Assembly: GCA_041651415.1 (NCBI GenBank)
Contig: JBAZJH010000002.1
Span: 20,474-84,473 of the forward strand
Reading direction: 5' to 3'
DNA length: 64,000 nucleotides
Origin: Minisyncoccota bacterium
GTDB taxonomy: Bacteria > Patescibacteriota > Minisyncoccia > UBA6257 > XYB1-36-10
Positions 6,999-63,953 of the stretch are shown piece by piece (position 1 is the stretch's first letter; the number at the start of each line of letters is the position of its first letter). The translations under genes and the position numbers were made by a program. The notes under the pieces are model-generated. The model worked only from the letters and a program-made list of their open reading frames with translations. It was not told the origin of the DNA and did no database searches.

Positions 6999-7025
6999 AA
7001 ATTTTCAAAAGATTTATTAAGGAAA

Positions 7026-7043
7026 CTCCGACCGAAGTCGGGA
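7026..7043. repeat. CTCCGAC-loop-GTCGG hairpin motif (copy 1 of at least 6)
   Basis: ctccgaccgaagtcggga; same motif at 9249, 11278, 23372, 35685, 63825. Confidence 0.6.
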
Positions 7044-7116
7044 TGCTCAAATTTTTGAATAAGTTTATAAATAAACTTATTCAAAATTTGGCAAATTTGG
7101 TATAATATAGAACAAA

Positions 7117-9231
7117 ATGATTTCTTTAGACACGCCGCTTGAAAAAATCTACGGCATCGGGCCGAGATTTATCGCCAAGTTCAAAAAACTTGAGATATTA
7201 ACGGTGAAAGATTTAATCCGACATTTTCCTTTTCGTTATGAAGATTTTTCCAGAATTTCTTCAATTGCCGAACTTAATCCCGGACAACAGGCGACAATCA
7301 AAGCTTATGTAAAAAGAGTGAGCGAAAGACGAAGCTTTAAAAAAAGAATGGTGATAGTAGAAGCAAGATTAGCGGACGAGACGGGAGAAGTGAAGGCGGT
7401 GTGGTTCAACCAGCCGTATGTAAAAAATATTCTGACGCTCGGAAAATTTTTTAACTTTTCGGGGAAGGCCGGGACTTTCGCGGGAGAAACGGTTCTTTCC
7501 AACCCAATGTATGAAGCGGTCGGGCAAGCCGGGCCGAAGCATACAGGGAGGCTTGTGCCGATATATTCGGAAACAAGAGGAATAACTTCAAAAGGCATTC
7601 GATATATCATTAAGCCGGTTTTGGAAAATCTGGAGGAAATGGAAGATTTTATTCCGGATGAAATTTTAGACGAAAACAAATTGCCGGACATAAACGAAGC
7701 GATAAGAAATATCCATTTCCCCTCCTTAATAGAAGACGCCGATTCAGCCAGAAAAAGATTCGCCTTTGAAGATTTGTTTTTGCTTTCCATTTTAAATCTG
7801 GGAAAAAGAGCGGTGCTTTCAAAATTGAAATCAATAGCCATAGAAAGTGACCCGCAGTTCATGAAGGAAGCGGAAAAAATTTTGCCTTTTTTAATGACAG
7901 CGAGCCAAAAGAAATGTTTGGAAGAAATTTTAGGCGACATGGGAAAGCCAACGCCGATGAATAGACTGCTTCAAGGAGATGTGGGAAGCGGCAAAACAGC
8001 GGTGGCGGCCTTAGCGGCGCTAGCTGCCGCAAAAGGAGGAATGCAGGCGGCTTTTATGGCGCCGACAGAAGTTTTAGCGCGCCAGCATTATGAAACAATC
8101 AAAAGGCTTTTTGCAAAAACAGAAATAACTGCCGGACTCATTACGGGAGCAAACAAAGGAAGAATGTTTTTTGGAGAAGGACTGGAAGCGGAAATTTATA
8201 AAAAAGAAATAAAGAAAAAAACGGAAGAAGGGAAAGTGAAAATTTTAATCGGAACACATTCCTTGATTCAAGAAGACGTGAAGTTTGAAAATTTGGGAAT
8301 TGTGATTGTGGACGAACAACACCGATTCGGAGTGGAACAAAGAGCAAAATTAGCCGGAGGAGAAAAAAAGAAAAAGGCGCTCCCCCATTTTTTATCAATG
8401 AGCGCCACGCCAATTCCGAGAACTTTGACTTTAACCATCTTCGGAGATTTAAATCTTTCAACAATCGACGAGATGCCGAAAGGCAGAAAGGAAATTAAGA
8501 CAAGCGTAGTGCCGCCGGAAAAAAGAGAAGAAGCTTATGATTTTATAAGAAAAGAGGTGAAGCAAGGCAGACAGGTTTTTGTGGTTTGCCCAAGAATAGA
8601 AGAAAGCGAAGCTGTCAGCGCCGGACAAGAGCTTTTTCAGATGGAGACGGCTTCCGTAAAAAAAGAATACGAAAAATTATCAACACAAATTTTTCCGGAT
8701 TTAAAAGTGGCAATGCTCCATGGAAAATTAAAAGCCAAGGAAAAAGAAGAAGCGATGAATAAATTCAAAGAAGGGAAAACGGATATTTTAGTTTCCACTT
8801 CGGTTATAGAAGTGGGAGTGGACGCGCCAAACGCAACCGTTATGATGATAGAAGGAGCGGAGAGATTCGGACTCGCCCAGATTTATCAATTTCGAGGGAG
8901 AGTGGGGCGGGGTGAACATCAGTCCTATTGTTTTTTATTTACCGAATCCACAACGGATAAAACAACGGAAAGATTAAAAGCAATACTGAAAGCAAAGAAT
9001 GGATTCGAGCTGGCGGAAATGGATTTGGAAATAAGAGGGCCGGGACAATTTTTAGGCAAGAAGCAGACAGGATTGCCAGACACAGCAATGAAGTCGCTGC
9101 AAAACATTTCCATAATAAAGGAAGCAAGAAAGGCGGCGGAAAAAATATTAAAACAGGATATAACGCTTGTTTCTTTTCCAAGATTAAGAGAAAAAATAAA
9201 ATCGTTCAAAAAAGAAATCCATCAGGAATAA
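7117..9231 (+). CDS. recG: ATP-dependent DNA helicase RecG
   Basis: Wedge-domain N-terminus and helicase motifs GDVGSGKT and VVDEQHRFG; 704 aa. Confidence 0.92.
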   Translation: MISLDTPLEKIYGIGPRFIAKFKKLEILTVKDLIRHFPFRYEDFSRISSIAELNPGQQATIKAYVKRVSERRSFKKRMVIVEARLADETGEVKAVWFNQPYVKNILTLGKFFNFSGKAGTFAGETVLSNPMYEAVGQAGPKHTGRLVPIYSETRGITSKGIRYIIKPVLENLEEMEDFIPDEILDENKLPDINEAIRNIHFPSLIEDADSARKRFAFEDLFLLSILNLGKRAVLSKLKSIAIESDPQFMKEAEKILPFLMTASQKKCLEEILGDMGKPTPMNRLLQGDVGSGKTAVAALAALAAAKGGMQAAFMAPTEVLARQHYETIKRLFAKTEITAGLITGANKGRMFFGEGLEAEIYKKEIKKKTEEGKVKILIGTHSLIQEDVKFENLGIVIVDEQHRFGVEQRAKLAGGEKKKKALPHFLSMSATPIPRTLTLTIFGDLNLSTIDEMPKGRKEIKTSVVPPEKREEAYDFIRKEVKQGRQVFVVCPRIEESEAVSAGQELFQMETASVKKEYEKLSTQIFPDLKVAMLHGKLKAKEKEEAMNKFKEGKTDILVSTSVIEVGVDAPNATVMMIEGAERFGLAQIYQFRGRVGRGEHQSYCFLFTESTTDKTTERLKAILKAKNGFELAEMDLEIRGPGQFLGKKQTGLPDTAMKSLQNISIIKEARKAAEKILKQDITLVSFPRLREKIKSFKKEIHQE

Positions 9232-9244
9232 AAAACCAATAAGA

Positions 9245-9338
9245 TTTACTCCGACCAAAGTCGGAGTTTATTAAATCTTAGCCGCTTCAAACCCCTTAAG
9301 ATAGCGCGCGGGGTTTGAAACTGAGATTTAATAAAAAA
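9245..9338 (+). repeat. Composite structured repeat E, copy 1 (hairpin + conserved tttattaaatcttagccgc ... gagatttaataaaaaa)
   Basis: Shares its 5' 40 nt and 3' 16 nt with 35681-35770; the inner hairpin differs; followed by a terminator hairpin. Confidence 0.6.
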
Positions 9339-9345
9339 GAAAAAA

Positions 9346-9367
9346 GGGAGCAAGGTGCTCCCTTTTT
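9346..9367 (+). terminator. Intrinsic terminator
   Basis: gggagc / gctccc stem followed by ttttt. Confidence 0.7.
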
Positions 9368-9386
9368 GAATAAAGTGCGAACGAAA

Positions 9387-10631
9387 TTAGGCAACGTGAA
9401 AAAGTTCGTTGCCCCGGCCTTGCTGAATGAGCGGAACAAAGTTTTCCAGTACCTGCAGAACGAGTGGGTCGGCAAGATTAATAACTTTTCCACATTCGGC
9501 TGATACATAAGAGGCCATAACAAGACGGGTGATTTCCAGACCGTATTCCCAGTCCAGAAAAGCATTTTTCCCTTCCGAAAAAGCAGAAAGAGCGTTGCGC
9601 CATTCCGAAACGTATCCATACAGATCCGGTTCGTTTGGTTGGACCGCAAGAAGACCGCGGGAAGCAGTGGCTTTTTCCAGCGCCGCTTCCGCGTTAGCGG
9701 TTGCTTCTGCGGCGGCATCACCGATAAAGATGGAGAGCGGAGAAATCAGCGAATTAACTTCAAGAGCGTAACCGGGACCCATGGCTTCCATAAGAAGCCG
9801 CAGACCTTGCTTTTCAAACATCCAAGAATCAGTGAACTGCGCCTGGGCAATCTGGCCTGTTTCGGGATTTTCAAAAACGATAGTTCCCGAACAATAATCT
9901 TCGGCGGGAGTTTTGGCGTAGTCAACTCCTCTGTCCTTCAAAAGTTTTTCACGCCAATACGGAAGACCCCACTTCAGAAGACCGAGACTGCAGTTGACTG
10001 ATTTCGGCCTCATAAAAGTCGGCGATTTTCCGATGGGGTTAAGACAATACCAACCGACCGCGATGCTGTGACAGCCCATATCGCAAAGAACGCCGCCACC
10101 TTGGCGAGTGGGATCCCAGAACCAACCTTCGTGCGGACCGCCATGTTCTTCAGCGGAACGAGTTAGCGTGACTGGACCCATCTTTTTTTGAGTCGGCGTC
10201 AATTGAGTAAGCGCTGAGTGAATTGCCGGCATATGAATCTGGTTTTCGAAATAGGCGGTGTTGAGCCCGACGGAATTTGCCAATTCAACAAGACGCCGAG
10301 CTTCTTTCATGTTGCTACCTAAAGGCTTCTCACAAATAACACCTTTGAGATTCTCGCCTTTTTGGACCGCTTGAGTGATTTCTTCCATCGTTTCAACCCG
10401 AGCAAAGTTCGGCATAAACATGCAAACGATGTCGGAGATTTGGCAGAGTTCGGATACGCTTTCACATACTGAACATTCGCCCAGTCCGTTCGATTCCACT
10501 TCTGCGGCGAATGCTTCCGCCCCAGCGACAGCGAAAACACCAGTTATTTCTGCTCCTCTTACTGACTGAAGAGCCAACCGATGAAAATTTGCATTGAACC
10601 CCGCGCCTATAATTCCTACTTTTAGATTCAT
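9387..10631 (-). CDS. Gfo/Idh/MocA family NAD(P)-dependent oxidoreductase
   Basis: N-terminal Rossmann motif VGIIGAGFNANFH; EKP motif; RBS aaggagg; 414 aa. Confidence 0.75.
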   Translation of the reverse strand: MNLKVGIIGAGFNANFHRLALQSVRGAEITGVFAVAGAEAFAAEVESNGLGECSVCESVSELCQISDIVCMFMPNFARVETMEEITQAVQKGENLKGVICEKPLGSNMKEARRLVELANSVGLNTAYFENQIHMPAIHSALTQLTPTQKKMGPVTLTRSAEEHGGPHEGWFWDPTRQGGGVLCDMGCHSIAVGWYCLNPIGKSPTFMRPKSVNCSLGLLKWGLPYWREKLLKDRGVDYAKTPAEDYCSGTIVFENPETGQIAQAQFTDSWMFEKQGLRLLMEAMGPGYALEVNSLISPLSIFIGDAAAEATANAEAALEKATASRGLLAVQPNEPDLYGYVSEWRNALSAFSEGKNAFLDWEYGLEITRLVMASYVSAECGKVINLADPLVLQVLENFVPLIQQGRGNELFHVA

Positions 10632-11038
10632 TTTTTTCCTCCTTATGAGAAAAACTTTTTAGTTAGCGCAAACATAATTTATTGTTTGCTTTTATTTGAA
10701 ACATTTTTACTTCTTGCTTTAATAACGCAAAAGCATCTTTAACCTCCTTTCCGAAAGATAAACTAAAAAATATTATTGATGTAAAAGTGCGGGAAGATGT
10801 TAACACAATAATTTTTATTTGTAAATAGCAGTAGAAAAAGTAAAAGGCCATCAGATGATGGCCTTGTTTGCAGTTTATAGTCTAAATTTTAAAAACTTTT
10901 TGAAAGGCAGTTAAACGCCTGGTGTTTGATTAGTGCGTTTAATTAGTGTGCCTTTATAAAAAGCTTTTCTTTTTTTAGACTGATTTCAATGTTCTAACTT
11001 AAATATACAAAAAAGAAGTAAAGAGAGCAAGTGAGGGG

Positions 11039-11298
11039 GTGTGGAAAACTTTCGCTCACAACCTATAGCCGTTTTCAAAAACGCTTCAAGACTTTTTAAA
11101 TTAAAAAGAATTTTTTACGGAAGAAGCTTAACGCGGTGCCCGTTTGCCTTTTTGTCCGAAACGGACAAAAAGTTTTCCGACCACTACTTCTTCCTGAAAA
11201 ATTCTTAATTTAATAAAGTCTTTACGCTAAATTTTTAAGCGGCTATAGGTTGCTCGCTTGTTAGTGATAGTAAGGAAGCTCCGACCTTGAGTCGGAGC
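11039..11298. repeat. ~260-nt structured repeat, copy 1 (related to 63579-63844)
   Basis: Shared 5' block gtgtggaaaaNtttcgctc, a shared ~130-nt 3' block at ~80 percent identity, ending in a gctccgac-loop-gtcggagc hairpin; internal long-range stem acctatagccg / cggctataggt. Confidence 0.55.
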
Positions 11299-11319
11299 AA
11301 ATAATCAGCCAAAGGTTCC

Positions 11320-23328: not shown

Positions 23329-23371
23329 AAGAAGATTTTAACAAAAAATAAGAAAAACATTAATATTGATA

Positions 23372-23389
23372 CTCCGACCGAAGTCGGAG
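23372..23389. repeat. CTCCGAC-loop-GTCGGAG hairpin (copy), followed by a 15-bp perfect palindrome overlapping the tRNA 3' end
   Basis: ctccgaccgaagtcggag followed by gagcacaattttaac ttt agttaaaattgtgctc (23387-23420). Confidence 0.6.
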
Positions 23390-23415
23390 CACAATTTTAA
23401 CTTTAGTTAAAATTG

Positions 23416-23487
23416 TGCTCCCAGCAGGAATTGAACCTGCATCACAGCCTTCGGAGGGCCGCGTTCTATCCGTTAAACTATGAGAGC
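23416..23487 (-). tRNA. tRNA-Arg (anticodon CCG)
   Basis: Hand-folded: acceptor GCTCTCA/TGGGAGC, anticodon stem CGGCC/GGCTG with loop CTCCGAA, T-loop TTCAATT. Confidence 0.85.
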
Positions 23488-32301: not shown

Positions 32302-32934
32302 TTACTTATTGATTTTATCCTCTTGATGGAAAAAGCGACCACCGCCAAAACCCATTCCCATTCCATTTTTCAATCCCAGTTCCTCAAAAATGGCTTTAGC
32401 TTCATCAGGCTTTCCCTCACTTAGAAGCTTGTGAGCCTCGGCAAAACGGGAAAAGTTTTGTTCATTGATAGTTTCCGTTATCTTCTGCCCTTCAACCAAA
32501 GTTTTCCAAGCGGAATAATCTTTATTTTCTAGAGCTTTTTCGATAGCAGCGCGGTCTTCAGAATTTTTTCCGTCTTTCGGAGGCGCTAATCTTCCCATAA
32601 AAACGCCGAAACCATGCCCATCAACGCCAAGTTCTTTTAAAACCGCCTGGCCTTCTTTGATTTTCAACAAAGCTTCAGCATACTTCACAAAATTTTGTTC
32701 ATTGATAGTTTCCGTTATCTTCTGCCCTTCAACCAAAGTTTTCCAAGCGGAATAATCTTTATTTTCTAGAGCTTTTTCGATGGCGTCGATTTTAGTCTGG
32801 TCAAAGACCGGACGAGAAGCAGAGTTTTCGTTTCCGCCATTTTTATTTTCCGCAAAAACCTGCGGAAGAGCAAAAGCGGAAACAACCAAGAAACTTGCGC
32901 CCAGAGTAGTTAAAACTTCTTTCTTATTCATCAT
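32302..32934 (-). CDS. Secreted protein with an internally duplicated 79-aa domain
   Basis: Signal peptide; two in-frame copies share an 89-nt block that is 100 percent identical at the DNA level (32456-32544 and 32693-32781). Confidence 0.6.
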   Translation of the reverse strand: MMNKKEVLTTLGASFLVVSAFALPQVFAENKNGGNENSASRPVFDQTKIDAIEKALENKDYSAWKTLVEGQKITETINEQNFVKYAEALLKIKEGQAVLKELGVDGHGFGVFMGRLAPPKDGKNSEDRAAIEKALENKDYSAWKTLVEGQKITETINEQNFSRFAEAHKLLSEGKPDEAKAIFEELGLKNGMGMGFGGGRFFHQEDKINK

Positions 32935-34392: not shown

Positions 34393-35628
34393 TTATTTAT
34401 TCAATCGGTCGCGCAGATGGCGGTGATAAGAGACGGCAAAACGATGCGCTTCGTCGCGAAGGAGGATAAGGGTTTTTTTAAGAGCAGAAACTTCGGAAAC
34501 CAATTTTTTCTCGGAAAAACCAAAAATAAGACGATTATTTTTGCGATTTTTTCCTTTGGCGATTCCGATTACCGGAATATTGATTTTTAAACCGCTTAAA
34601 ACTTTTTTAGCGGCATTAACCTGCCCCAAGCCGCCGTCAATCAAAATGAGGTCGGGATAAGGCCAAGAATTGTTAAAACGGCGGGAAAGAATTTCAGAAA
34701 TCATGCCGGTGTCGTTTATCTGATTCAGCGAACGAATCTTAAATTTGCGGTATTCGTTTTTAGCCGGTTTCAAATCTTCAAGAACAACCATACTGCCGAC
34801 CGCAGAAGTGCCGCTAATATTGGAAATATCATAACCTTCCAGGCGGGAGAATTTATTTTCTTTTTTGGAAAAATCGGAAAAATCCTCGTTTTCAAGAAGA
34901 GCGACATCTTCTATGTGTCCAAGTTTTTTTATTTTATTCCTTAAGGAAGCGGCTTCTTCAAATTTTTCCCGCAGAGACAAAAGAGCCATTTCTTTTTTAA
35001 GTTTTTTCAAAAGGGCCGGTTTTTGGCCGCGAAAAAGAAGACGGATATTATTGATGGTTTTTTTATATTCGGAAGAAGATATTTTTCCGGCGCAAATTCC
35101 CGGGCAGCGGCCGATCTGAAAATAAAAACAAGGTTTTTTGGCATTCGGCTCGCAATTGCTCCAAGGAAAAATTTTACGGACGATATTCAAGATAGTTTCA
35201 AGATTTTTTTTACTGGTAAAAGGGCCAAAGATTTCTAGAAAATCGGAAAATTGATATTCGGTTTTCAGTTCCAAACCGCGAATTAAAAGGAGTTTAGGAA
35301 ATTTATTCTTGGAAATAGCGAGATAAGTCCAGCTTTTGTCGCTTTTCTCTTTGATATTAAATTTGGGTTGGATTTCTTTAATAAGCTTGGCTTCCAGAAT
35401 AGTCGCTTCCAGAATGGAATCGGCAGATTTAAAATCTATAGAAAAAATTTCAGAAACAAGTTTTTCCAAACGAGAATCGTGAGCTTTATGAAAATAAGAA
35501 GACACCCGCTTTTTTAGGGAAGTGGCTTTGCCGACATAGATAACTTCTCCCTTTTTATTTTTCATCAAATAAACACCAGGAGAGTCGGGTAATGGTTTTT
35601 TCAGTTTTATATTTTCCGGAAGAAGCAT
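34393..35628 (-). CDS. uvrC: Excinuclease ABC subunit C (short form lacking the C-terminal HhH domain)
   Basis: GIY-YIG N-terminus (PGVYLMKNKKGEVIYVGKATSLKKRVSSYF), UvrBC-interacting region, and endonuclease domain with ILIDGGLGQ. Confidence 0.85.
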   Translation of the reverse strand: MLLPENIKLKKPLPDSPGVYLMKNKKGEVIYVGKATSLKKRVSSYFHKAHDSRLEKLVSEIFSIDFKSADSILEATILEAKLIKEIQPKFNIKEKSDKSWTYLAISKNKFPKLLLIRGLELKTEYQFSDFLEIFGPFTSKKNLETILNIVRKIFPWSNCEPNAKKPCFYFQIGRCPGICAGKISSSEYKKTINNIRLLFRGQKPALLKKLKKEMALLSLREKFEEAASLRNKIKKLGHIEDVALLENEDFSDFSKKENKFSRLEGYDISNISGTSAVGSMVVLEDLKPAKNEYRKFKIRSLNQINDTGMISEILSRRFNNSWPYPDLILIDGGLGQVNAAKKVLSGLKINIPVIGIAKGKNRKNNRLIFGFSEKKLVSEVSALKKTLILLRDEAHRFAVSYHRHLRDRLNK

Positions 35629-35680
35629 TTGTTTAATAATACAATTCTATTTTATTAAATGAAGCCGCGCAGATTTTGAG

Positions 35681-35770
35681 TTTACCCCGACCAAAGTCGG
35701 GGTTTATTAAATCTTAGCCGCAAAAATCTCGCGACAAAGCGCGGGTTTTTCGCGGAGATTTAATAAAAAA
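35681..35770 (+). repeat. Composite structured repeat E, copy 2
   Basis: ccccgaccaaagtcgggg hairpin + tttattaaatcttagccgc + variable hairpin + gagatttaataaaaaaa; the homolog of 9245-9338. Confidence 0.6.
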
Positions 35771-35798
35771 ACCCGAAGAGGGTTTTAAAAATGAGGCA

Positions 35799-35838
35799 GG
35801 GGGAGAAGGAAAAAATTTTCCTTCTCCCCCGCTTTTTT
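35799..35838 (+). terminator. Strong orphan hairpin-terminator (gggggagaagg / ccttctccccc + T-run)
   Basis: 11-bp perfect GC-rich stem followed by gcttttttg; no plus-strand CDS upstream; lies inside a 430-bp hairpin-dense, GC-richer non-coding stretch. Confidence 0.55.
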
Positions 35839-36082
35839 GTTTCGGAGCGCGCGTTCTCCGAAACGGCGGTTCCGACGTGAGACAAAAATCCCGGGCCGGA
35901 AACGAACAACGCCCCTTGGCGGTTCTCCGCCCCGCGGCAGAAAGCAAAAATCAGGCCAAGAAAACCGTTCGCCGGAGCTTTTGCCGCAAAATCAAAGTGC
36001 TATAAACACTTGAAAAAAAGAATAAACCAAGATGATTTTTTTATCAACCCCGTTAGAAAATATTTTCTAACGGGGCAAAAAA

Positions 36083-38608
36083 TTATTTCAAATACTTGCG
36101 GAGATATTTGCCGGTTAAAGAACGGCTGAATCTCGCGACATCTTCGGGAACACCGCAGGTGACGATTTCGCCGCCGCGAACTCCCCCGCCGGGACCAAGG
36201 TCAATAATCCAATCCGCGGTTTTAATAACATCAAGATTGTGTTCGATCACGACAACGGTGTTGCCGCGATTAACAAGTTCGTGCAGAACTTCTAAAAGTT
36301 TTTTAACGTCTTCAAAATGGAGGCCGGTGGTCGGTTCATCCAGAAGATAAAAAGTGCGGCCAGTGGCGCGACGAGCCAGTTCATTCGCCAATTTAACGCG
36401 CTGAGCTTCGCCGCCGGACAAAGTAGTGGCCGGTTGGCCGAGTTCGATATAGCCCAAACCGACTTCGTTTAAAACAATTAATTTATCGGCAATCTGAGGA
36501 ATATCGGAAAAAAAGCGAGCGGATTCTTCAACAGTCATATTTAAGACTTCGGAAATATTTTTGCCTTTGTAATGAACTTCCAAAGTTTCGCGGTCAAAAC
36601 GGCGGCCCTTGCAGACTTCGCATTCCACATAAACTGTCGGGAGAAAATGCATTTCAATCGCCAGCCAGCCGTGGCCTTCGCAGTTTTCACAGCGTCCGCC
36701 TTTAACGTTAAAACTGAAACGGCCGGGTTTGTAGCCGCGAAAACGGGCTTCGGGAGTTGCGGAAAAGAGATCGCGGATATGATTGAAAAGTCCGGTATAA
36801 GTGGCAGGATTGGAACGGGGCGTGCGGCCGATAGCCGACTGGTCAATTAAAATGGCTTTATCCAAGAATTCATGGCCTTTGATTTCATTAAACTTGCCAA
36901 GACGAAGACCGGAGCCATTCAAACGATTAGAAAGAAAATTGAAAACCACGTCGCGCATAAAAGAAGATTTGCCGGAGCCGGAGACGCCAGTGACGGCAAT
37001 AAAACGGCGGAGAGGAATATCAACGTTGATATTTTTTAGATTATTTTCGGAAGCGCCTCTAATTTTCAAAGAGTCGTGAATTCTTTTAATGGGACGGCGG
37101 CCGGAGATCGGAATTTTTTTATCGCCGCGAAGATAAGCGCAAGTCAGAGATTTTTTATCGGAAAAAATTTTCGGAATGGGGCCGGAGCAGATAATTTCTC
37201 CGCCGTGTTTGCCGGCGCCCGGACCAAATTCAACCAAATGGTCGGCCGCGCGAATAGTGTCTTCATCGTGCTCCACAACAACAATAGTGTTGCCGGCATC
37301 GCGGAGGTCTTTCAAGGTTTTTATCAACCGGTCGTTATCGGCCTGATGCAAACCAATGGTCGGTTCGTCCAGAACATAAAGAGCGCCGACAAGCCCCGAT
37401 CCGACCTGAGAAGCAAGACGAATGCGTTGGGCTTCGCCGCCAGACAGGGTGCCGGCTTTGCGGTTAAGCGTGAGGTATTCCAAACCGACATCTTCCATAA
37501 ATTGAAGACGGTTTAAAATTTCTTTCATAATGGGAGCGGAAATTTCCGCTTGACGCTTAGTGAGCTTCAAATCAACAAAAAAAGCGATGGCTTCTTCAAT
37601 AGTAAAAGAAATAACATCAATGATATTTTTTTTATCAAGAAGAACAAAAAGAGATTCTTTGCGCAGGCGCTTGCCGAGACAATCAGGACAAGGCTCCTCG
37701 GAAAAAATATATTTAGTGCCGAGGCCATGGCAGGTGGGACAGGCGCCAAAAGGGCTGTTGAAAGAAAAAAGACGAGGCTCGATTTCCGGAAAAGAGAATC
37801 CGCACTCGGAACAGGAAAATTTGGCGGAAAGAGTGATTTCTTTTTTGCCAGCCAAAGAAATAGTGACGAGGCCGTTCGAATAATCAACGGCAGATTCGAT
37901 GGATTCCGAAAGACGCTGACGCTTGTCTTTATCAAAATCAGTCAAATCAGTTCCCGAAAGCATATCAGTAACGATTTCAATGGTATGCTTTTTGTTTTTA
38001 TCAAGCTCAATCCGTTCGGAAAGAGGCATAATTTTTCCGTCGATTCTCGCTTCGGCAAAACCGGAGTTATACATATCGTAGAGCATTTGGTAATACTCCC
38101 CTTTCCGGCCGCGGACAACCGGAGAAAAAACATAAGAATCAAATTTGGAAAGATTTTTTTCCTGAAAAATTTTTTCCGCTTCAGAAGAAATAATATCCAC
38201 CATTTCGGAAACGGTCATTTTTTCAATTTTTTTGCCGCAAGCGGGGCAATGAGGAATGCCGACTCTCGCAAAAAGAACGCGGAGATAGTCGTAGATTTCG
38301 GTGATAGTCGCGACAATGGAACGAGGATTAGCGGAGTGAGCTTTTTGGTCAATAGAAATAGCGGGAGAAAGTCCGGAGATTTCATCAACATCCGGCTTCT
38401 GCATCTGTCCTAAAAACTGGCGGGCATAAGCGGAAAGAGATTCAATGTAGCGGCGCTGGCCTTCGGCAAAAATGGTATCAAAAGCAAGGGAACTTTTGCC
38501 CGAACCGGAAAGACCCGTAAAAACGGTCATTTTATTGCGAGGAATCTCAAGAGAAACATTTTTGAGATTATGCTCGCGAGCGCCTTTGATAATTATTTTG
38601 TCCTGCAT
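36083..38608 (-). CDS. uvrA: Excinuclease ABC subunit A
   Basis: N-terminus [20 protein letters not shown]...[35 protein letters not shown] is near-identical to canonical UvrA; two ABC modules and zinc-finger cysteines; start moved 10 codons downstream of the track start. Confidence 0.93.
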
Positions 38609-38913
38609 AAAAAATAAATTACAAATTACAAGCACCAATCCGCCAGTTGGCGGAACAAATAAATCACGAATTACAATGTTTGAAACTTAAACTTTAGAAT
38701 ATTTCATAAAGAAACCAATAAATGGCCCGCAATTGGGCTTATGGGGAGAGTATAAGGCAAGAAATGACGAATGACAAATTACTAATTTATAAAAGTGAAA
38801 TGCCGGGGATTTTTTTGAACAACAAAAGCGGTCTTGAGATGATTTGACAAAGTTTAAAAAAGGGAGTATTATTTAAAAAGAAGTTAACAAACAAAAAAGG
38901 AGGAAGTGTCATC

Positions 38914-48291: not shown

Positions 48292-48891
48292 TTAGCGATA
48301 ATCAACACGTTTAGCGGCGACTCTTTCACCGGTGAATTTTTCGATAATGGAATACTGGTCTTTTTTGCGGCGGCGGAAGAAAGAAAAATCTCTTTCGCGG
48401 TCGGTGATAACATTTTTAGTAGTCATCATTTTTTCAGACAAGTCTTTTAAACTGGAACCGGTCGTGATGGGAGAAGCTTCTAATTCCGGTTTTTTGGTGA
48501 TAATGATTTTGGGAGCCGGAATTTTAGCTTGAGGAAGAGGAGCGGCTCTTCTTTCAAAAGAAGGAATTTTTATTTTAGAGACTTTATCTTCCAAATCGGC
48601 CGGAGCGAAAATTTCGTGGCGCCACATAATAACGCGCGGGTTCCAATAAAACTCGAGAGCGGAAACAATAACAAGAGGAAGAGAGCGGCCGCTGATTTTC
48701 AGAAAAGCCAGCCCGGCGGCAGAAGCCCAGAAAAAAACAGCGATAACCAGCCAAAGCCAGAAATTAAGCAGATAAAAAAGTCCCAAACTTATTCCAAAAG
48801 CGGCGGCAAAATAAAAAAATTGCTTTAAAGTAAGCGGACCGACTATTTTGTCTTCGGTGTCTATAAATTGAGGTACCTGAAAAGTGGCCAC
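48292..48891 (-). CDS. PrgI/VirB3-like small membrane protein
   Basis: N-terminus VPQFIDTEDKIVGPLTLKQFFYFAAAFGISLGL matches the PrgI-family signature (VPKDl...fGLTlRQ); two TM helices; immediately upstream of virB4, as in Gram-positive T4SS. Confidence 0.5.
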   Translation of the reverse strand: MATFQVPQFIDTEDKIVGPLTLKQFFYFAAAFGISLGLFYLLNFWLWLVIAVFFWASAAGLAFLKISGRSLPLVIVSALEFYWNPRVIMWRHEIFAPADLEDKVSKIKIPSFERRAAPLPQAKIPAPKIIITKKPELEASPITTGSSLKDLSEKMMTTKNVITDRERDFSFFRRRKKDQYSIIEKFTGERVAAKRVDYR

Positions 48892-48974
48892 AATAAAAAA
48901 GTTAAAAGTTTATAAAGTTAAAAGGACTATGAGTAAATTATAACCCAAAAACAGAAAAAATTTATTTTTTTGTT

Positions 48975-50102
48975 TTATCCTCGAAAATCAACAATATTGC
49001 CTTTTAAGGAAGGACCGGAAGGAGGAACCAATTTTTCCTTAGAAGGAGGCGCGGGCGGAGGAAGAGGTTTTTCTTCTTTTTTAAGAGGCGTGGGAGCGGG
49101 AATAGAAACAGAACCAACGGAAACGGATTTAATTTTAGAAAAAGGGTCAACGGGACCGGAAGGAAAACCGCTATAATCAATCGCCTGCCTATTTTCTTGT
49201 TCGGTTTTAGCGGTTACAGGAGAAACTATTTTTTCTTTTCTTTCTTCGCGGCGAGTTTTGCCGATTTCAACTCGGGCAACAACCGCTTCTTGTTTTATCT
49301 CTTTAGAGAGAGGAGAAGAACTCATTTCAGGGACAGCCTTTTTTTCAACCATACCGGAACGAAAAACCGGTTCCACTTTCGATTCTTCGTGAATCATAAA
49401 AGGAGAAACGGGACGGATAAAATCTTTTTGAATCGGCGCAATTTTTGAAGAAAGATTATCAGCCAAAGGAGGAGCAATCGGTTTTATAAAAGGAGCGGAA
49501 GGCAAAGGAGAAAACGGAGAAGGTTTGGAAATAATTTGTTCCATAGGTTTTGGAACAGGGAGAGAAGAAGCCGGTTTAGGAGACAAAAAAGGAGAAAGAG
49601 GCGCGGGGGCGGGAGAAATTTGCTTGTTAAAAACAGGAGGGATGGGTTTTAATGACTTATCAAGACCAACAGTTTGAGAAGCATTTTGTTCCGAAAAAAC
49701 GATTTTATTCAAAGGAGAGACAACGGGAACTTTTTTCAGATTGACGACATTTTCCGGAGGAACCGGGGAAGAAGGCATTTTCGACTGGCCGATTTTATCT
49801 ATTTCCCCTTTCAAGCTCGCAAAAATATCACGATTTAAAGTTGCGGAAATTTTTTTGGCGTCTTCTACGGGAACAGGAAGACCGGAGGCAACTTCTTTTT
49901 CCAAATCAGAAAGAGGAATAAAACCCATAGTAACGCGGCCAAAAATTTTTTCCAGGACTGCTGATTGACCTTCATTAAGATTAAAATTCTTTTCCAAATT
50001 ATCTATTTTCTCAAAGATATCATAATCAAAAAGCGCGTCCTGGAGGAGGGAAGGAAGTTTTGCAAGACGTTCGTCTATTTGAATTTTGGAAAGCTTAAGC
50101 AT
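48975..50102 (-). CDS. Proline-rich T4SS-operon protein
   Basis: 375 aa, P/S/K-rich low-complexity middle, no TM helix. Confidence 0.55.
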   Translation of the reverse strand: MLKLSKIQIDERLAKLPSLLQDALFDYDIFEKIDNLEKNFNLNEGQSAVLEKIFGRVTMGFIPLSDLEKEVASGLPVPVEDAKKISATLNRDIFASLKGEIDKIGQSKMPSSPVPPENVVNLKKVPVVSPLNKIVFSEQNASQTVGLDKSLKPIPPVFNKQISPAPAPLSPFLSPKPASSLPVPKPMEQIISKPSPFSPLPSAPFIKPIAPPLADNLSSKIAPIQKDFIRPVSPFMIHEESKVEPVFRSGMVEKKAVPEMSSSPLSKEIKQEAVVARVEIGKTRREERKEKIVSPVTAKTEQENRQAIDYSGFPSGPVDPFSKIKSVSVGSVSIPAPTPLKKEEKPLPPPAPPSKEKLVPPSGPSLKGNIVDFRG

Positions 50103-50108
50103 CTTTCA

Positions 50109-52454
50109 TTATTTTTTTTCTTCTTTTTTTTCTTCGCCTTTTTCTTCTCCTCCTTTCTTCTCTTCTCCAAAATCATCAGAACCAGCAGAGTTTAAAGACT
50201 TTAAAATGTATTTACGAAGTTCCGAATTCACATCTCCACCCTCTTCTCTTTTTTTATTAATAGCATTAAGAACTACTCTATTTTTTGAAAAATCAGAAGT
50301 TTTTATAGAATCCTCAAAATCTTTTGGAGCCAGACCAGAGATAGCTAAAAGAGTTCTATTAGCCATAACGGAACGGTTTTCAGCAGAAGCCTTTTTGACG
50401 ATATTGCTATATTCTTTCGGTTTTAATTTAGAAATAGCGCGATAAGCGGCCTGTTTGCCTCTTTTATTCCACATATCTTCAGTCATCCCCGATTGAAGAC
50501 CTTTTTCCAGAATATCAAACCAAGAGCCTTTTTGAATGTCGGCAGTTTTCATAGTGGATAAAGCTTTAACCAAAGATTCTTCGAAATCAGTAATGACATC
50601 GTTAAGTTCGTCATTTTTCTTTTCATCAACATTTACCAAGTTTTTAATTGATTCCGAAACACTCTTTGCTGTTTCATCTTTTTTATCTTTGGCAAGAGAA
50701 AGGAGAATGTTTGAGGAAGTTATTTTATCGACATCACCGCCGTATTTTTGGAACAAAAGAGGGTCGATATATTCCGGATACTTATCAAGTTTGCCTTTTT
50801 CAGCCAAAAGTTCCTGAAGAGCAGCTTTTTTAACCGGATCGCGCGCCATGCGGGCAGAGGCGGAAATCTGTTCAGGGGAAAGATTCTTTGCTTCTTTTTT
50901 ATAGTTTTCAAAAATAGTGTCGGAAGTTCGTTTTTTGAAACCAAGAACGGTTTTGGCGGTAAGCAAGCCAAGGCGACTGGCTTTTTCGCTTTTTATTTCT
51001 CCTTTTGCCCAGTCTTCCATCCTTTTTCCAACACCGGAACGACCAATAGTTTGACCGTAAGCGAAACGACCAGTGCCAAGAACAGCTTTAGAACGAGTGC
51101 GTCTTAACCAATTAGTGGTTCCATCTTTTACCCAATTTGCCCAACTCATAGTTCCTTTGGCGCCATTAATACCAAATCTATCGGCAACCATCATACTGCC
51201 GAAGAGAAAACCAAGAACGACAATCATATTGCCGATTTGGCCCAAACCATTAACAATCATTATTTTACCGCTTAAAGCAGCTTCCGCGCCGGAGGAAGAA
51301 GCGCCGGAAGAAACGGAGCCGCCAGTCAGCGATTGAATAGAAAGGAAAATAAAAAAACTGGAGACGGGAGCAAAAAAAGTCCAGCGGAGAAAACTATTCC
51401 ACCAAGCGCCGGAATAATTTATTTTCGGGAAAATTCCCGTAAACCAGGCAAGAGGGGCGAGAATAAGAAGGAAAGAAAGAAAAATAAATCTGTAAATAAG
51501 CATAATAGACAAACCAATAAGGAAGATGGCGGAAAAAGCGGTAAAAAGAACGGAAAAAAGAAGAGTGGAAATGCCGACCATAAAAGAAGCAGAAAGGGCG
51601 GAGGCCTTTTGTCCGGCAGATAAAGAAGAAAAATCAACTTCATACAGCTTATTTATATCAAGGAGTTTAGAAAAAGCGGAAGAAATATCAGGCTGACTGA
51701 TAAGAGCATTGTTTAAAAAATAAGCGGTAACAATGCCGGCAAAATCAATCAGAACGCCGCAAATAACAAGAGAAAAATTTATCAGGATAGCAGTTTGAAT
51801 GAATTTAAAAAGCAAGGACTGCATACCATATTGTTTTTGCCGGATAATAGTGGCAAAAGAAATAACGAGGATGCCCAAGACAAAACCAAGGTTGGCAAAA
51901 TCACGGGCGAAAGACCAGCCGTTTTTAATAATGGGCATTTTCATCAGGCGAGAATTCAAACTAAAAGCAAAATCAATCAACCAAGAACCGAAAATAAAAA
52001 CAACGTTCGTGATATAAGAGAGAACATTGAGGAAAAAACCGAAAACACCCTCCATAGCAAAACTAGCAAAACCAGAAATAAAACCTTCGCCAGTATATTC
52101 AGTTTTTAAATCACCACTTTCACTTATTGTATCTTTTCTAGAAACTCCAGAGCCTAAAAGATCATCATCCGTAGAAATTTTTTTTCCTTCAGGATAACTG
52201 TAATAATCATGCCCAGTTGAAATAGCTTCTCCAACACCCGTTGAATAGGAGTAATCCCAAGCATTTTTTTCTTTATTAAAGGTGGCATCTTTTGGAACAC
52301 CAGAAGGACAAGAAGGAAAGGAAGAACAAGTCTGACCATTAGTTGGAGTAGCAGTTTCTTGCGCCAAAACAAAATTGAAGGAAAAAGAAAAAATAACAAA
52401 AAAGAAGGAGAGAAGAGCGGTTTTTTTCCAATTATTTTTTAGCCAAAAAAACAT
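50109..52454 (-). CDS. VirB6/TrbL/ConG-like polytopic membrane protein with a Cys-containing N-terminal ectodomain and a lysine-rich C-terminal tail
   Basis: Signal peptide, ~140-aa extracytoplasmic domain, at least 6 TM helices, then a ~350-aa hydrophilic tail; 781 aa; this layout and operon position match VirB6-like subunits of monoderm T4SS. Confidence 0.55.
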   Translation of the reverse strand: MFFWLKNNWKKTALLSFFFVIFSFSFNFVLAQETATPTNGQTCSSFPSCPSGVPKDATFNKEKNAWDYSYSTGVGEAISTGHDYYSYPEGKKISTDDDLLGSGVSRKDTISESGDLKTEYTGEGFISGFASFAMEGVFGFFLNVLSYITNVVFIFGSWLIDFAFSLNSRLMKMPIIKNGWSFARDFANLGFVLGILVISFATIIRQKQYGMQSLLFKFIQTAILINFSLVICGVLIDFAGIVTAYFLNNALISQPDISSAFSKLLDINKLYEVDFSSLSAGQKASALSASFMVGISTLLFSVLFTAFSAIFLIGLSIMLIYRFIFLSFLLILAPLAWFTGIFPKINYSGAWWNSFLRWTFFAPVSSFFIFLSIQSLTGGSVSSGASSSGAEAALSGKIMIVNGLGQIGNMIVVLGFLFGSMMVADRFGINGAKGTMSWANWVKDGTTNWLRRTRSKAVLGTGRFAYGQTIGRSGVGKRMEDWAKGEIKSEKASRLGLLTAKTVLGFKKRTSDTIFENYKKEAKNLSPEQISASARMARDPVKKAALQELLAEKGKLDKYPEYIDPLLFQKYGGDVDKITSSNILLSLAKDKKDETAKSVSESIKNLVNVDEKKNDELNDVITDFEESLVKALSTMKTADIQKGSWFDILEKGLQSGMTEDMWNKRGKQAAYRAISKLKPKEYSNIVKKASAENRSVMANRTLLAISGLAPKDFEDSIKTSDFSKNRVVLNAINKKREEGGDVNSELRKYILKSLNSAGSDDFGEEKKGGEEKGEEKKEEKK

Positions 52455-52457
52455 TTT

Positions 52458-54851
52458 TTATTTAAGATAGCCGTTAGTTTCTAAGCTGTTTATTTTTGAA
52501 TTAAGAGCGTCAAGATAAGATGTTTTATTTTCAGGATGATTAAAATAAACAAGATTAATTGAAAGACCTAAGAAGTTCTGACTGGCGGAAAAAGGAGCGA
52601 TGGTGGTTTTTATATTTCCGGAAGAAACAATCGTCACAGCTGAACCGCTATCCGTTTTTTGATTAAGATTAATCGGAAGTTTGTTGGTTATATCAAAATT
52701 ATTACCACTTTCACTTCCTAAGCCAGCGGAAAATAAATTCAGAAGTTCCGCTCGTTCTTTTTGAGAATAATCCAAATCGGTTTCAGAAACATCCGTTTTC
52801 CAGATATCGGCGGATTTAGAAAGAAGATTATTTTTAAGAATCGGAAGATTAGAATTTGAAGAATCAACATCTCCCAGATAGAGATAAGCTTTATTTAATT
52901 CAGAGACAACAGCTTCTTTATTCTGCCGAAAAGAAATCTTCCGACTTAAAGATTTACTATCAAGAGAAAGAGAGTTAAAAGAAGAAATCTTTCCACTAAG
53001 AGAAGAAAGATAATTGTCAAAATTATCAGGGTGAAGATAGAAAAAATTAGAAGCAACCGTAGAAGAAAGAGATAAGCCAAGATAATTTCCATAACCGGAA
53101 GTCGTTTTATTAAATGTGTATTTTATTTCATTATTAAAGAAATTGAATCCAGACAGAGAGAGGGAGACTGCGTTCGTATAATAAATTTTCGTTGTTTTTT
53201 GCCTCATTCCCGTGCCGGAAACAGTTTCTTCAAAACAAGAGATATCCTTTGATATGGTCTTATTATCAACTTTTAAACCATTACCAACATTAAGATTTAG
53301 AGGAAGAGTGTTAAGCAAATCAAAATTTTCACTTTCTTCATTAATGGAAGAGTCGCCGGCCAAAAAGAGATTGGAAAGTTCTTCTTTTTGAAGAGAAGAC
53401 GCCAATATTTCAGCCTCAGTTTCCGAGCCGGAAGAAGCGGATATTTCATCATTAAGCTTTTGAAGGATTGTCTGAAGTTTCTTTTTAAGTTCATCCACTT
53501 TTGCTATTTTGACGCTTCTTTCACTTACGGGAAGAAAATAGAAAATATCTTCAGAACATATTTGATTGCTGGAGCCGCCGGTATCTTTATCTTTAACTGA
53601 ATATTTCAAATTAAGGGAAAGATTTATGTCTTCAAGATAAAGAATAGCTCTTTTAACTTCGTTAAAAGAAGAAATTTTATTTTGTTTATAACTGCCAAGC
53701 GAAGAATAAAGAGAATCGTAATTAGAAGAGGAATCAAGAGAAGAGCTCAAATCAAGATTGGTGGTGTTTTCTATTTCTTCTTTGATAAGATCATCGATAC
53801 TTTCCACGTTTTTCGGAACAGAATCATAGGCGGAAGAAAAATCATTATCAGAACTTTCATTAAAAATAATTTCAGAAATATCTTCTAAAGAAACACTACC
53901 AAACTCGCCGAGGGAAAAATTTGCTCCGTCAATATCGCCAATATTAAGAGAAAAAGTACCTAAACTTTCCCCGTTTAAAATACCTTGAGCCACACCCATG
54001 ATTCCGGAGACGCCACTGCCTAAGAGCTTATTAAAAACAGATGAAGAAATAGCACTGACGAAGCTCGCAAAATCATCGGCATTAACAATATAATCAATAT
54101 CAGAAGTAACGGCGCGAGAAAGAGTGTCACCAATAGTTTTGCCGGGAGTAGTACTGACTTCATTAAGACAAAATTCTTCTCCCGCTTCGTTAGTAGCTGT
54201 TTTCAGACATTTTTTTGTGGAAAGAAATCCCCCGCCGGCAAGCGCTTCGTTTTTGGCGGCTTCGGCTTTAGCGACGGCTTTGCGGTCAACTATGTCTTTA
54301 GCAATAAAAGATTTTCCGTAATAATTATTCTCAGGGAAAGTGTTTTTAGAAAAACTTTCCCAGTCAAATTGGCTGTATTGTTCATTATATTTTTCTTCAA
54401 CAGTTTTCTCCTTGGTTTCTGAAACAAAAGAACTGCCGCTTAATTGAGATTTTATAGCCGAGTCAAAACTATTTCCGGAGCTAAAGAAACCGCTTGATTC
54501 AAGACCTTGAATAGCTTCTTTTTTACCCAAAGAGTAATTTTGGTTAAGAAAACTTTCCCAGTTAGTGACAAATTTAGGTTCACTGCCGCCAGCGATGCCT
54601 GTGACCATCTGGCTAACAAGAGCGTCGAGCAAGCTTCGCTTAAGATTTTCGGTGGTAAGTTTAAAGATAAACTCCATAATCATTCTTGCTAAGCTCCCGG
54701 TAGTGGCGCCGGAAGTGATGCCGAGAGGCCCCAAAACGCCCGGATTTGTTTCAAGAGTCGGAACAGCGGCAAAAGAAGAAGCAGGGAGGCAAGAAAATAA
54801 AAATAATAAAACAAGAGAAGCGGCGGAAGATTTATAAAAAAAGTTTTTCAT
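52458..54851 (-). CDS. Large secreted Ser/Asn-rich protein (797 aa), possibly a T4SS-associated surface/adhesin protein
   Basis: Clear signal peptide; low-complexity S/N/D-rich sequence. Confidence 0.58.
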   Translation of the reverse strand: MKNFFYKSSAASLVLLFLFSCLPASSFAAVPTLETNPGVLGPLGITSGATTGSLARMIMEFIFKLTTENLKRSLLDALVSQMVTGIAGGSEPKFVTNWESFLNQNYSLGKKEAIQGLESSGFFSSGNSFDSAIKSQLSGSSFVSETKEKTVEEKYNEQYSQFDWESFSKNTFPENNYYGKSFIAKDIVDRKAVAKAEAAKNEALAGGGFLSTKKCLKTATNEAGEEFCLNEVSTTPGKTIGDTLSRAVTSDIDYIVNADDFASFVSAISSSVFNKLLGSGVSGIMGVAQGILNGESLGTFSLNIGDIDGANFSLGEFGSVSLEDISEIIFNESSDNDFSSAYDSVPKNVESIDDLIKEEIENTTNLDLSSSLDSSSNYDSLYSSLGSYKQNKISSFNEVKRAILYLEDINLSLNLKYSVKDKDTGGSSNQICSEDIFYFLPVSERSVKIAKVDELKKKLQTILQKLNDEISASSGSETEAEILASSLQKEELSNLFLAGDSSINEESENFDLLNTLPLNLNVGNGLKVDNKTISKDISCFEETVSGTGMRQKTTKIYYTNAVSLSLSGFNFFNNEIKYTFNKTTSGYGNYLGLSLSSTVASNFFYLHPDNFDNYLSSLSGKISSFNSLSLDSKSLSRKISFRQNKEAVVSELNKAYLYLGDVDSSNSNLPILKNNLLSKSADIWKTDVSETDLDYSQKERAELLNLFSAGLGSESGNNFDITNKLPINLNQKTDSGSAVTIVSSGNIKTTIAPFSASQNFLGLSINLVYFNHPENKTSYLDALNSKINSLETNGYLK

Positions 54852-61960: not shown

Positions 61961-62151
61961 TGTTAAAATTTTATCTTAAAATTTTAAAAAGCCAAAATTA
62001 TAAAATGAAACTTCATGGTTTTACGAACAAAGCATCTTGAGTTTTATCCCGCCCCGAGAGAGTTTTTGCAAAAATTAAAAAAATATTTTAAATTCACAAA
62101 AAACAAGAATTAAAAAATCTGCCGCTGGCAGATTTTTTAACATTCGATTTT

Positions 62152-63493: not shown

Positions 63494-63578
63494 AAAAAGT
63501 TTTTAAAGCGCTTTTTTAATTTTAATCTAAACCAAAAGGAGGCTTTTCTTTTATTATAAACCTTTATGGAAATAAAGG

Positions 63579-63844
63579 GTGTGTGGAAAAGTTTCGCTCC
63601 ATGGCAAAAACCTTTTTCAAAAAAGGGCGAATCGCCAAAATTTTGAAAAAAGTTTTTGCCATCTCGCTTAGGGTGATGAGAGAGAGGCTTGCTAACGCAA
63701 GCTTTTTAAAAAGACAGGGAGTTTAATTATTATTTCTTCCTAAAAAATTCTTAATTTATTAAAGCTTCTACACTACATTTTAGAGAGCGGATATTGGTTA
63801 TTCGCTTTTAGTGATAATGGGGAAGCTCCGACTTTAGTCGGAGC
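63579..63844. repeat. ~260-nt structured repeat, copy 2 (related to 11039-11298)
   Basis: Same 5' and 3' conserved blocks as copy 1; ends in a gctccgac-loop-gtcggagc hairpin followed by a T-run. Confidence 0.55.
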
Positions 63845-63953
63845 TTTTTATAAACCATGCCCGCTTCAGCTCCGCGATGCTTTTAAAACAATGTTTTTGT
63901 AATGCTCGCTTATGAGTGGTGAGAATGGTTTATTTATAGGGGTTTTAGTTATA

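Follow-up and report, generated by a model that had tools for sequence, protein, structure and literature searches.

A modular hairpin repeat beside transcription terminators in a Patescibacteria genome is probably a non-autonomous mobile element

Patescibacteria, also known as the Candidate Phyla Radiation (CPR), have small (about 1 Mb), streamlined genomes in which, to our knowledge, few repeat families have been described. Repetitive extragenic palindromic sequences (REPs) number tens to hundreds per genome, and a REPIN consists of two inverted copies of the same REP. The bacterial interspersed mosaic elements (BIMEs) of Escherichia coli and the pneumococcal BOX repeats (boxA-boxB-boxC) are mosaic intergenic repeats. 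Among miniature inverted-repeat transposable elements (MITEs), Correia and RUP duplicate TA or a few bases at their target, and class C group II introns of bacteria have their insertion sites immediately downstream of intrinsic terminators. Here we describe a hairpin repeat found in a 64-kb stretch of DNA from a Minisyncoccota bacterium (contig JBAZJH010000002.1; this whole stretch is referred to as the window). The host belongs to Patescibacteria, and its nearest named relatives are metagenome-assembled genomes (MAGs) labelled Ca. Pacebacteria and Ca. Liptonbacteria. The closest kind of described system is that of the REP and REPIN elements with their RAYT (Y1 HUH) transposases (PMC3116915, PMC3337134). 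Full-text searches of the literature found no description of such a repeat family in CPR bacteria and brought up only TIGR-Tas arrays.

The window carries two copies of the repeat, referred to as W1 and W2, next to the repair genes recG and uvrC. Both look-alike segments that the original prediction had placed at 9245–9338 and 35681–35770, as a family of small RNAs, were found there. An exact 19-mer, TTTATTAAATCTTAGCCGC, occurs in the window twice, against 0.11 occurrences expected, and lies within what the two copies have in common; they also share a 41-nt 5′ block of 95% identity (repeat family D14) and a 3′ end that reads GAGATTTAATAAAAAA. In each copy the predicted structure has two parts: H1 (ACYCCGAC-CAAA-GTCGGRGT), a small hairpin of 8 bp, and, 3′ of it, a long hairpin, H2, the arms of which (TTATTAAATCT and AGATTTAATAA) surround an inner hairpin that is unrelated between W1 and W2. 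Alignment and folding thus confirm the architecture that had been proposed: shared blocks, a 5′ hairpin and outer segments that pair around differing centres. The two folds have energies of −39.5 and −41.7 kcal/mol (z about −7) and are matched in stability by those of the minus strand; H1 differs between the copies by one compensatory change from U-A to C-G. The H2 stem is followed by a T-run on neither strand, and therefore H2 is not itself a standard intrinsic terminator.

Four further copies bring the family to six, at five independent loci in two organisms. One of these, W0, is at positions 1172–1306 of a contig from the European Nucleotide Archive (ENA) assembly of the same strain (L031), which extends the source genome leftward; it lies about 8.8 kb to the left of the window and scores 90.6 bits with R1, a covariance model constructed from the first five copies, before W0. 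There are thus three copies in the roughly 74 kb of the source genome that we examined (the window plus L031). The other three (A, B and C) are on a 3.6-kb metagenome contig of the Joint Genome Institute that comes from another organism (L018). They occupy its plus strand, with two arranged in tandem, and are flanked by unrelated genes of the minus strand. The pitrilysin encoded on L018 has no database relative above 56% identity, and the contigs that carry its nearest relatives, at that identity (L024 and L025), contain no copy of the repeat. Plus-strand orientation is common to all six copies; the genes around them run mostly on the minus strand. The covariance-model search that had been suggested recovers all of the copies together with weak relatives that consist of H1 plus a hairpin, and a filter-free model search of the window detected no additional full copies. 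Exact searches for the 19-mer gave three matches in metagenomes, among which L018 alone is a real copy, and only two in contigs representing one genome per species; these two were in unrelated organisms, and about four would be expected by chance (rough estimate). Matches at chance level imply that the source species is not a Genome Taxonomy Database (GTDB) representative or that the motif is not kept in its relatives.

Comparison of the six copies defines a full element of about 115–145 nt. Its parts are, in order, a left terminal repeat (TTATTAAAT), a variable hairpin module H0 (AAATGAAACTYCA ... TCTTGAGTTTCAC), H1 with the core CCGAC-N3-5-GTCGG, an internal repeat, an inner hairpin and a right terminal repeat (ATTTAATAA). 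The internal repeat is a second copy of the left terminal repeat, and it is this copy that pairs with the right repeat to form H2. In W2 the terminal inverted repeats are TTTTATTAAAT (35651–35661) and ATTTAATAAAA (35758–35768), and the copies in L018 and L031 have similar ends. Set against these full-length copies, the supposed partial third copy at 35651 turns out to be the left terminal repeat and H0 of W2 itself, so that W2 spans about 35651–35768. The modularity of the family is also evident from truncated, fragmentary and tandem copies.

The inner hairpin comes in two discrete types, each of which is found in both organisms, and is not hypervariable as had been surmised. Type I (TTCAAACCCC-TTAAGATAGCGCGC-GGGGTTTGAA) is identical in W1 and L018-C over 34 nt, stem and loop included, with a single base changed in W0. 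Type II is present in W2 and in copies A and B of L018. Over the full element, W0 and L018-C are 83% identical and W2 and L018-B are 78% identical, compared with 65–70% for copies in the same genome. Identity in these pairs is therefore higher than within a genome, indicating that subfamilies cross organism boundaries. Conservation is concentrated in H1 and the repeat arms.

The evidence that the element inserts comes from relatives in which the same sites are empty. W2 sits in a 454-bp spacer between uvrA (36083–38638, minus strand) and uvrC (34393–35628, minus strand). In the relative with a 94% identical UvrC (L033), the terminator hairpins are followed by GGGTTTTTTT-AATGGATAAATTGTATTATTAAGTAA-ATG, and it is precisely there that the window carries about 113 additional bases. 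The empty-site junction reads GGGTTTTTTT-AATGGATAAATTGTATTATTAAGTAAATG; at most 1–2 bases are ambiguous with respect to the filled site, with no clear duplication. W2 is also absent from a 77% identical relative (L009), which has kept the terminator hairpins, and in both of these relatives the GGGGGAGAAGG and AAAACCC hairpins directly precede uvrC. In two others (L007 and L011, 91% and 74% identical), the gap between uvrA and uvrC is only 13–19 bp. At the second locus, recG (7117–9231, plus strand; stop codon 9229–9231), W1 starts 3 nt past the stop codon, inside the recG transcription unit and in its 3′ untranslated region (UTR). In the relative with an 82% identical RecG (L023), the stop codon is directly followed by AAAAAGGGAGCGAGATGCTCCCTTTTT, which is the terminator hairpin of the window, and W1 is absent. 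Comparison of the filled and empty sites shows a repeated AATAAAA at this junction that is indistinguishable from the element’s own end.

Because flanks and hairpins are intact in the relatives with empty sites, the terminators and the neighbouring genes predate the insertions, and the terminators belong to those genes and not to the repeat. The GC-rich stem and T-run that had been reported after each copy are thus real, but they are the terminators of neighbouring genes. The same applies to the supposed orphan terminator at 35799–35838, which closes a minus-strand, GC-rich, non-coding block and is conserved in L009 and L033, both of which lack the repeat. At all five independent loci (W0, W1, W2, L018-B and L018-C), the element’s 3′ A-run passes into the A-tract that flanks a GC hairpin plus T-run, always in the same polarity, which points to an insertion preference for the A/T tracts of terminators.

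In our view, W1 and W2 are members of a non-autonomous mosaic repeat family, similar in kind to MITEs, REPINs and BIMEs and not described before, whose insertion sites are the A/T tracts of terminators. We put the probability of this reading at roughly 60%, including the supposition that H1 and the terminal repeats are recognised by a mobilising enzyme that is itself hypothetical. As in MITEs, the element is short and non-coding with terminal inverted repeats, its copies are dispersed and its sites are empty in L033, L009 and L023. An enzyme encoded elsewhere in the genome would move the element. It would recognise H1, the terminal repeats or both, perhaps in the form of folded single-stranded DNA, in the manner of HUH/Y1 transposases with IS200/IS605 elements and REPs. 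Hairpins placed in a neighbouring 3′ UTR, such as that of recG, may stabilise or insulate transcripts; this would be a side effect rather than evidence of a small-RNA gene.

Several observations weigh against this reading. No transposase or recombinase was detected among the 34 of 59 window open reading frames (ORFs) that were scanned with Pfam or among the genes of L031, for which we used precomputed Pfam labels, and the mobilising enzyme is hypothetical for this reason. Only six full copies were recovered, those from the same genome are more diverged (65–70% identity) than those of a recently amplified MITE, and no clean target-site duplication marks their ends. Conservation is confined to blocks, which include the 14-nt loop of the type I hairpin, and this would also fit a function for the host. 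The distribution is patchy: about 150 kb of sequence from closer relatives lacks a composite copy.

Comparison with REPs and REPINs shows the closest resemblance. They too are short palindromes located outside genes, and, as in H1, their core is conserved and their stem covaries; they form inverted-repeat hairpin composites around a spacer, as in H2, and also occur as single remnants. In both cases the repeat itself does not contain the transposase, if there is one. Unlike them, the present family has three different hairpin modules, with H2 formed from inverted TTATTAAATCT arms and H1 present once per element, lacks a GTAG-like 5′ tetranucleotide and has a low copy number of about one per 25 kb. 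No match to RAYT/Y1 (PF01797-type) proteins was found among the scanned ORFs of the roughly 74 kb. The H1 hairpin alone is more frequent, with six in 64 kb, which would extrapolate to roughly 60–100 per Mb from this region alone. With BIMEs and BOX repeats the family shares its modular build (H0, H1 and H2 occur combined, alone, in tandem or joined to two other repeat types of the window, variant 2 and family X; Table 1), its stable predicted folds and an intergenic location near terminators. There is no sequence similarity to either, the order of the modules and the terminal inverted repeats differ, and insertion polymorphism with a precise empty site is documented for the present repeat.

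The MITEs of Neisseria (Correia/NEMIS) and pneumococci (RUP) resemble the element in length (100–150 nt), in their terminal inverted repeats (TTATTAAAT...ATTTAATAA in this case), in being non-coding and intergenic, and in their presence or absence between close relatives. Unlike them, the element shows no clear target-site duplication, its copies have diverged and are not almost identical, the left repeat occurs a third time inside it, and its polarity beside terminators is fixed. Derivatives of IS200/IS605 elements (PATEs) are similar in their subterminal hairpins as likely recognition elements, in the lack of a clear target-site duplication and in uniform orientation, whereas we found no conserved 4–5-nt target 5′ of the left end and saw no TnpA or TnpB gene among the scanned ORFs. 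Class C group II introns are similar in inserting directly beside a terminator stem-loop in one polarity, but the element is much too short for an intron, lacks intron domains and a reverse transcriptase, and matches no intron family in Rfam. Integron attC sites are likewise imperfect palindromes of 60–140 nt at the 3′ ends of genes, whose outer arms and asymmetric bulge (TAG in the 5′ arm here) are conserved around a variable centre. An attC identity was rejected, as the arms GTTTATT...AATAAAC do not fit the R″/R′ core (RYYYAAC / GTTRRRY), no integrase is present among the scanned ORFs and there is no cassette array, the copies lying beside housekeeping genes.

A more specific proposal, which we regard as possible but doubtful, is that the repeat represents an undescribed CPR mobile system that targets terminators without target-site duplication and whose enzyme reads H1 (CCGAC-N4-GTCGG) as folded single-stranded DNA, or else that the inner hairpins, the two types of which are conserved between species down to the loop sequence, are used by the host. 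If the inner-hairpin types are kept for such a use, they could be modules that protect or insulate transcript 3′ ends, or loading sites for protein or RNA.

It is unlikely that the repeat is a family of functional RNAs, either stand-alone or processed from a 3′ UTR or intergenic transcript, in which the outer stem would be a scaffold, the type I or type II inner hairpin the functional part and the adjacent two-way terminator the end of the transcript. This reading stays open mainly because the type I hairpin, including its 14-nt loop, is conserved across two organisms beyond what is needed to form a hairpin. The very stable folds (z about −7), the hairpin and T-run that follow every copy on the plus strand and the preservation of the H1 stem through compensatory changes also agree with it. 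Against it stand, in addition to the greater age of the terminators, the non-syntenic positions of the copies, the absence of W2 from the 94% relative and the lack of promoters: upstream of W2 there is no plus-strand site resembling a sigma-70 promoter, and no consistent −35/−10 pair occurs within the element, H0 included. The idea that the 35681 copy forms an independent transcript is therefore not upheld, its terminators being present in L009 and L033 where the repeat is not. The same lack of a consistent −35/−10 within the element gives no support to the donation of a promoter to the downstream gene.

Statistical and database tests of an RNA function gave no support. In the six-copy alignment 93% of cells pair, and the covariation lacks significance, as 157 of 500 shuffled alignments score at least as high. 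Covariation is uninformative here because the outer stem shows no variation. The balance of G-U against A-C pairs points to the plus strand for copy A and to the minus strand for copy B, and shows no preference in the other copies. At the Rfam gathering threshold the window yielded only seven tRNAs, and L018 and L009 yielded nothing; E-value scans of both window copies and L018 gave only sub-threshold matches (for example, mir-722 at 22.7 bits against a threshold of 81, and sraA at 26.5 against 56). A DNA palindrome would explain the structure as well as an RNA would. We conclude that the predicted family is real as a structured, multi-copy family with more members in L031 and L018, but that its reading as small-RNA genes is not supported with regard to promoter, terminator, synteny or covariation, and that W1 and W2 are probably not two stand-alone small-RNA genes.

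Less probable still is that the copies are DNA sites for a host protein (a regulator of repair genes, a nucleoid protein or a site-specific recombinase) that would recognise the H1 core CCGAC-N4-GTCGG and the TTATTAAATCT/AGATTTAATAA palindrome. The invariant palindrome cores fit sequence-specific recognition. Of about 8 elements in the window that carry H1, 3 are neighbours of repair genes, with one on each side of recG and one in the uvrA–uvrC spacer. The unit 5′ to recG, which overlaps the promoter region, has a syntenic counterpart in L023. The enrichment near repair genes, about three observed against one expected by a rough estimate, is not significant. Other copies adjoin tRNA, glycosyltransferase, pitrilysin and DUF7282 genes, W1 lies downstream of recG and thus not in an operator position, and the sites at repair genes are empty in close relatives, so there is no conserved regulon. 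A DNA-repair regulon or SOS box was rejected on the same grounds, namely sites that are empty in relatives and copies that flank unrelated genes.

That the two copies are ordinary terminator or 3′-end sequence, alike by chance or through local duplication, is very improbable: both do adjoin genuine terminators, in AT-rich spacers of the sort in which hairpins are frequent, but the exact 19-mer occurs twice where 0.11 is expected, four more copies are found at unrelated loci of the source genome and another organism, H2 has no T-run on either strand, and relatives have the true terminators without the element; the copies in L018 and L031 and the empty sites likewise contradict the possibility, allowed for in the original prediction, that no more copies exist and that the shared blocks are terminators of flanking genes.

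A modular hairpin repeat that has moved recently, as the empty W2 site in the relative with 94% UvrC identity would imply, would show that CPR bacteria have active non-autonomous elements. The fixed insertion beside terminators and the shared H1 provide a handle for finding the mobilising enzyme. For annotation, a good fold with a terminator as neighbour should not by itself earn a small-RNA gene call. The repeats also matter for the quality of MAGs, as they break metagenome assemblies at their positions. Independent assemblies of the strain, from ENA and Logan, have breaks at these repeats (at the start of L004 and the end of L006), and the ENA contig k141_901243 ends at about window positions 11099 and 63789, in or beside repeats.

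The H1 hairpin is a module that extends beyond the family. The motif CCGAC-N4/5-GTCGG occurs six times in the window, in four contexts: in W1 and W2, in the variant 2 element at 7020, as a solo hairpin at 23371, and in the two copies of family X, X1 and X2 (Table 1). The base of its stem covaries while the core is fixed (CTCCGAC/GTCGGAG, CCCCGAC/GTCGGGG, TTCCGAC/GTCGGAA and CCCCGCC/GGCGGGG). We rejected a role as a DNA uptake sequence, as the 7-mer of H1 occurs only 17 times in 64 kb, mostly inside hairpins. A link to phages was also rejected, as searches with three patterns against viral contigs gave either no matches or unrelated ones.

Table 1. Positions of the repeat copies, their hairpins, related modules and adjacent terminators in the window
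Feature	Coordinates	Strand	Description
Variant 2 element	7020–7098	+	H1 CTCCGAC-CGAA-GTCGGGA, then ATGCTCAAA, then 15-bp AT-rich hairpin; 21.5 bits
W1	9234–9338	+	5′-truncated, H0 reduced to AACCAATAAGATTTAC, type I inner hairpin; R1 score 89.9 bits
H1 of W1	9248–9267	+	ACTCCGAC-CAAA-GTCGGAGT
H2 of W1	9268–9336	+	Arms TTATTAAATCT / AGATTTAATAA around TTCAAACCCC-TTAAGATAGCGCGC-GGGGTTTGAA; inner hairpin as in L018-C
Resident two-way terminator hairpin	9341–9367	.	Serves recG (+) and GFO/IDH/MocA oxidoreductase gene (−); adjoins W1, not part of the repeat
Family X copy X1	11030–11310	+	About 280-nt repeat, rod-like hairpin, terminal H1 at 11277–11299
Solo H1	23371–23389	+	CTCCGAC-CGAA-GTCGGAG; between tRNA-Arg (−) and a minus-strand gene
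W2, full length	35651–35768	+	TTTTATTAAAT, H0 remnant, H1, internal repeat, type II hairpin, ATTTAATAAAA; R1 score 107.4 bits
H1 of W2	35684–35703	+	ACCCCGAC-CAAA-GTCGGGGT
H2 of W2	35704–35768	+	W1-type outer arms, CCGC/GCGG clamp, inner AAAAATCTCGCG-ACAAAG-CGCGGGTTTTT; related to L018 A and B
Two resident terminator-type hairpins	35768–35838	−	AAAACCC-TCTTC-GGGTTTT and GGGGGAGAAGGAAAA/TTTTCCTTCTCCCCC; kept in L009 and L033
H0 and degenerate H1-start fragment	62005–62065	+	AAATGAAACTTCA...TCTTGAGTTTTATCCCGCC; nhmmer E = 0.006
Family X copy X2	63560–63860	+	Terminal H1 at 63824–63845

The variant 2 element lies just upstream of the recG promoter (TGGTATAAT), is syntenic at 9315–9393 of L023 (24.5 bits) and has a similar unit at 2213–2287 of L018 (25.4 bits); it might affect the expression of recG. 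In L023, a degenerate second unit of this type stands in tandem with the syntenic one (9259–9393). Members of family X open with the conserved GTGTGGAAAACTTTCGCTC, form a rod-like hairpin that is about 190 nt long (z −9 to −10) and carry H1 at the 3′ end. Compared by eye with the corresponding spacer of a 91% relative (L020), X1 appears as an insertion of about 240 nt, for which the automatic alignment did not anchor the right flank. The motif TGTGGAAAAC is also present in L020 spacers.

The solo H1 directly abuts a perfect 15-bp palindrome at 23389–23422 (GAGCACAATTTTAAC-TTTA-GTTAAAATTGTGCTC), the right arm of which shares sequence with the 3′ end of the minus-strand tRNA-Arg(CCG). Beside W0 and its terminator, ARAGORN predicts an 88-nt tRNA-like gene (L031 1333–1420, minus strand) labelled ‘tRNA-???’, which may be intron-containing or atypical. 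In L018, a non-coding spacer of about 480 nt, which runs from the tandem copies to a solo H1 unit, contains a GC-rich palindromic stretch at 2030–2160 (CTACCGCCTGCCTGCCCTGCCTGCCGGTAGGCAGGCGGTAAAGGCAGGGCAGGCAAG...).

Also within the uvrA–uvrC spacer is a non-coding block, about 230 nt long (window 35790–36010, minus strand), that is rich in GC, folds strongly and ends in two terminator-type hairpins. Homologues are present in L009 (3600–3910) and L033 (1–80), the 77% and 94% relatives, and are absent where the two genes abut (L007 and L011). Frame-breaking indels between the relatives indicate that the block is not coding, and it has no Rfam match. It looks like either an unannotated structured RNA gene or another inserted element.

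About 80% of the window genes are on the minus strand, and yet GC skew and AT skew are both positive on the plus strand over most of the window, an unusual combination. Because GC skew and gene orientation disagree, the assignment of leading and lagging strands, and with it the strand of the repeats relative to replication, is ambiguous. Elsewhere in the window, an ORF at 32302–32934 (minus strand) contains a 96-nt direct repeat (32452–32547 and 32689–32784) that is 98% identical and spaced by 237 nt (79 codons). The repeat has the appearance of a recent internal duplication that preserved the reading frame of a protein of unassigned function. A gene for a PrgI-family protein lies beside two ORFs of about 780–800 amino acids at 48292–54851, which suggests a cluster related to conjugation or type IV secretion.

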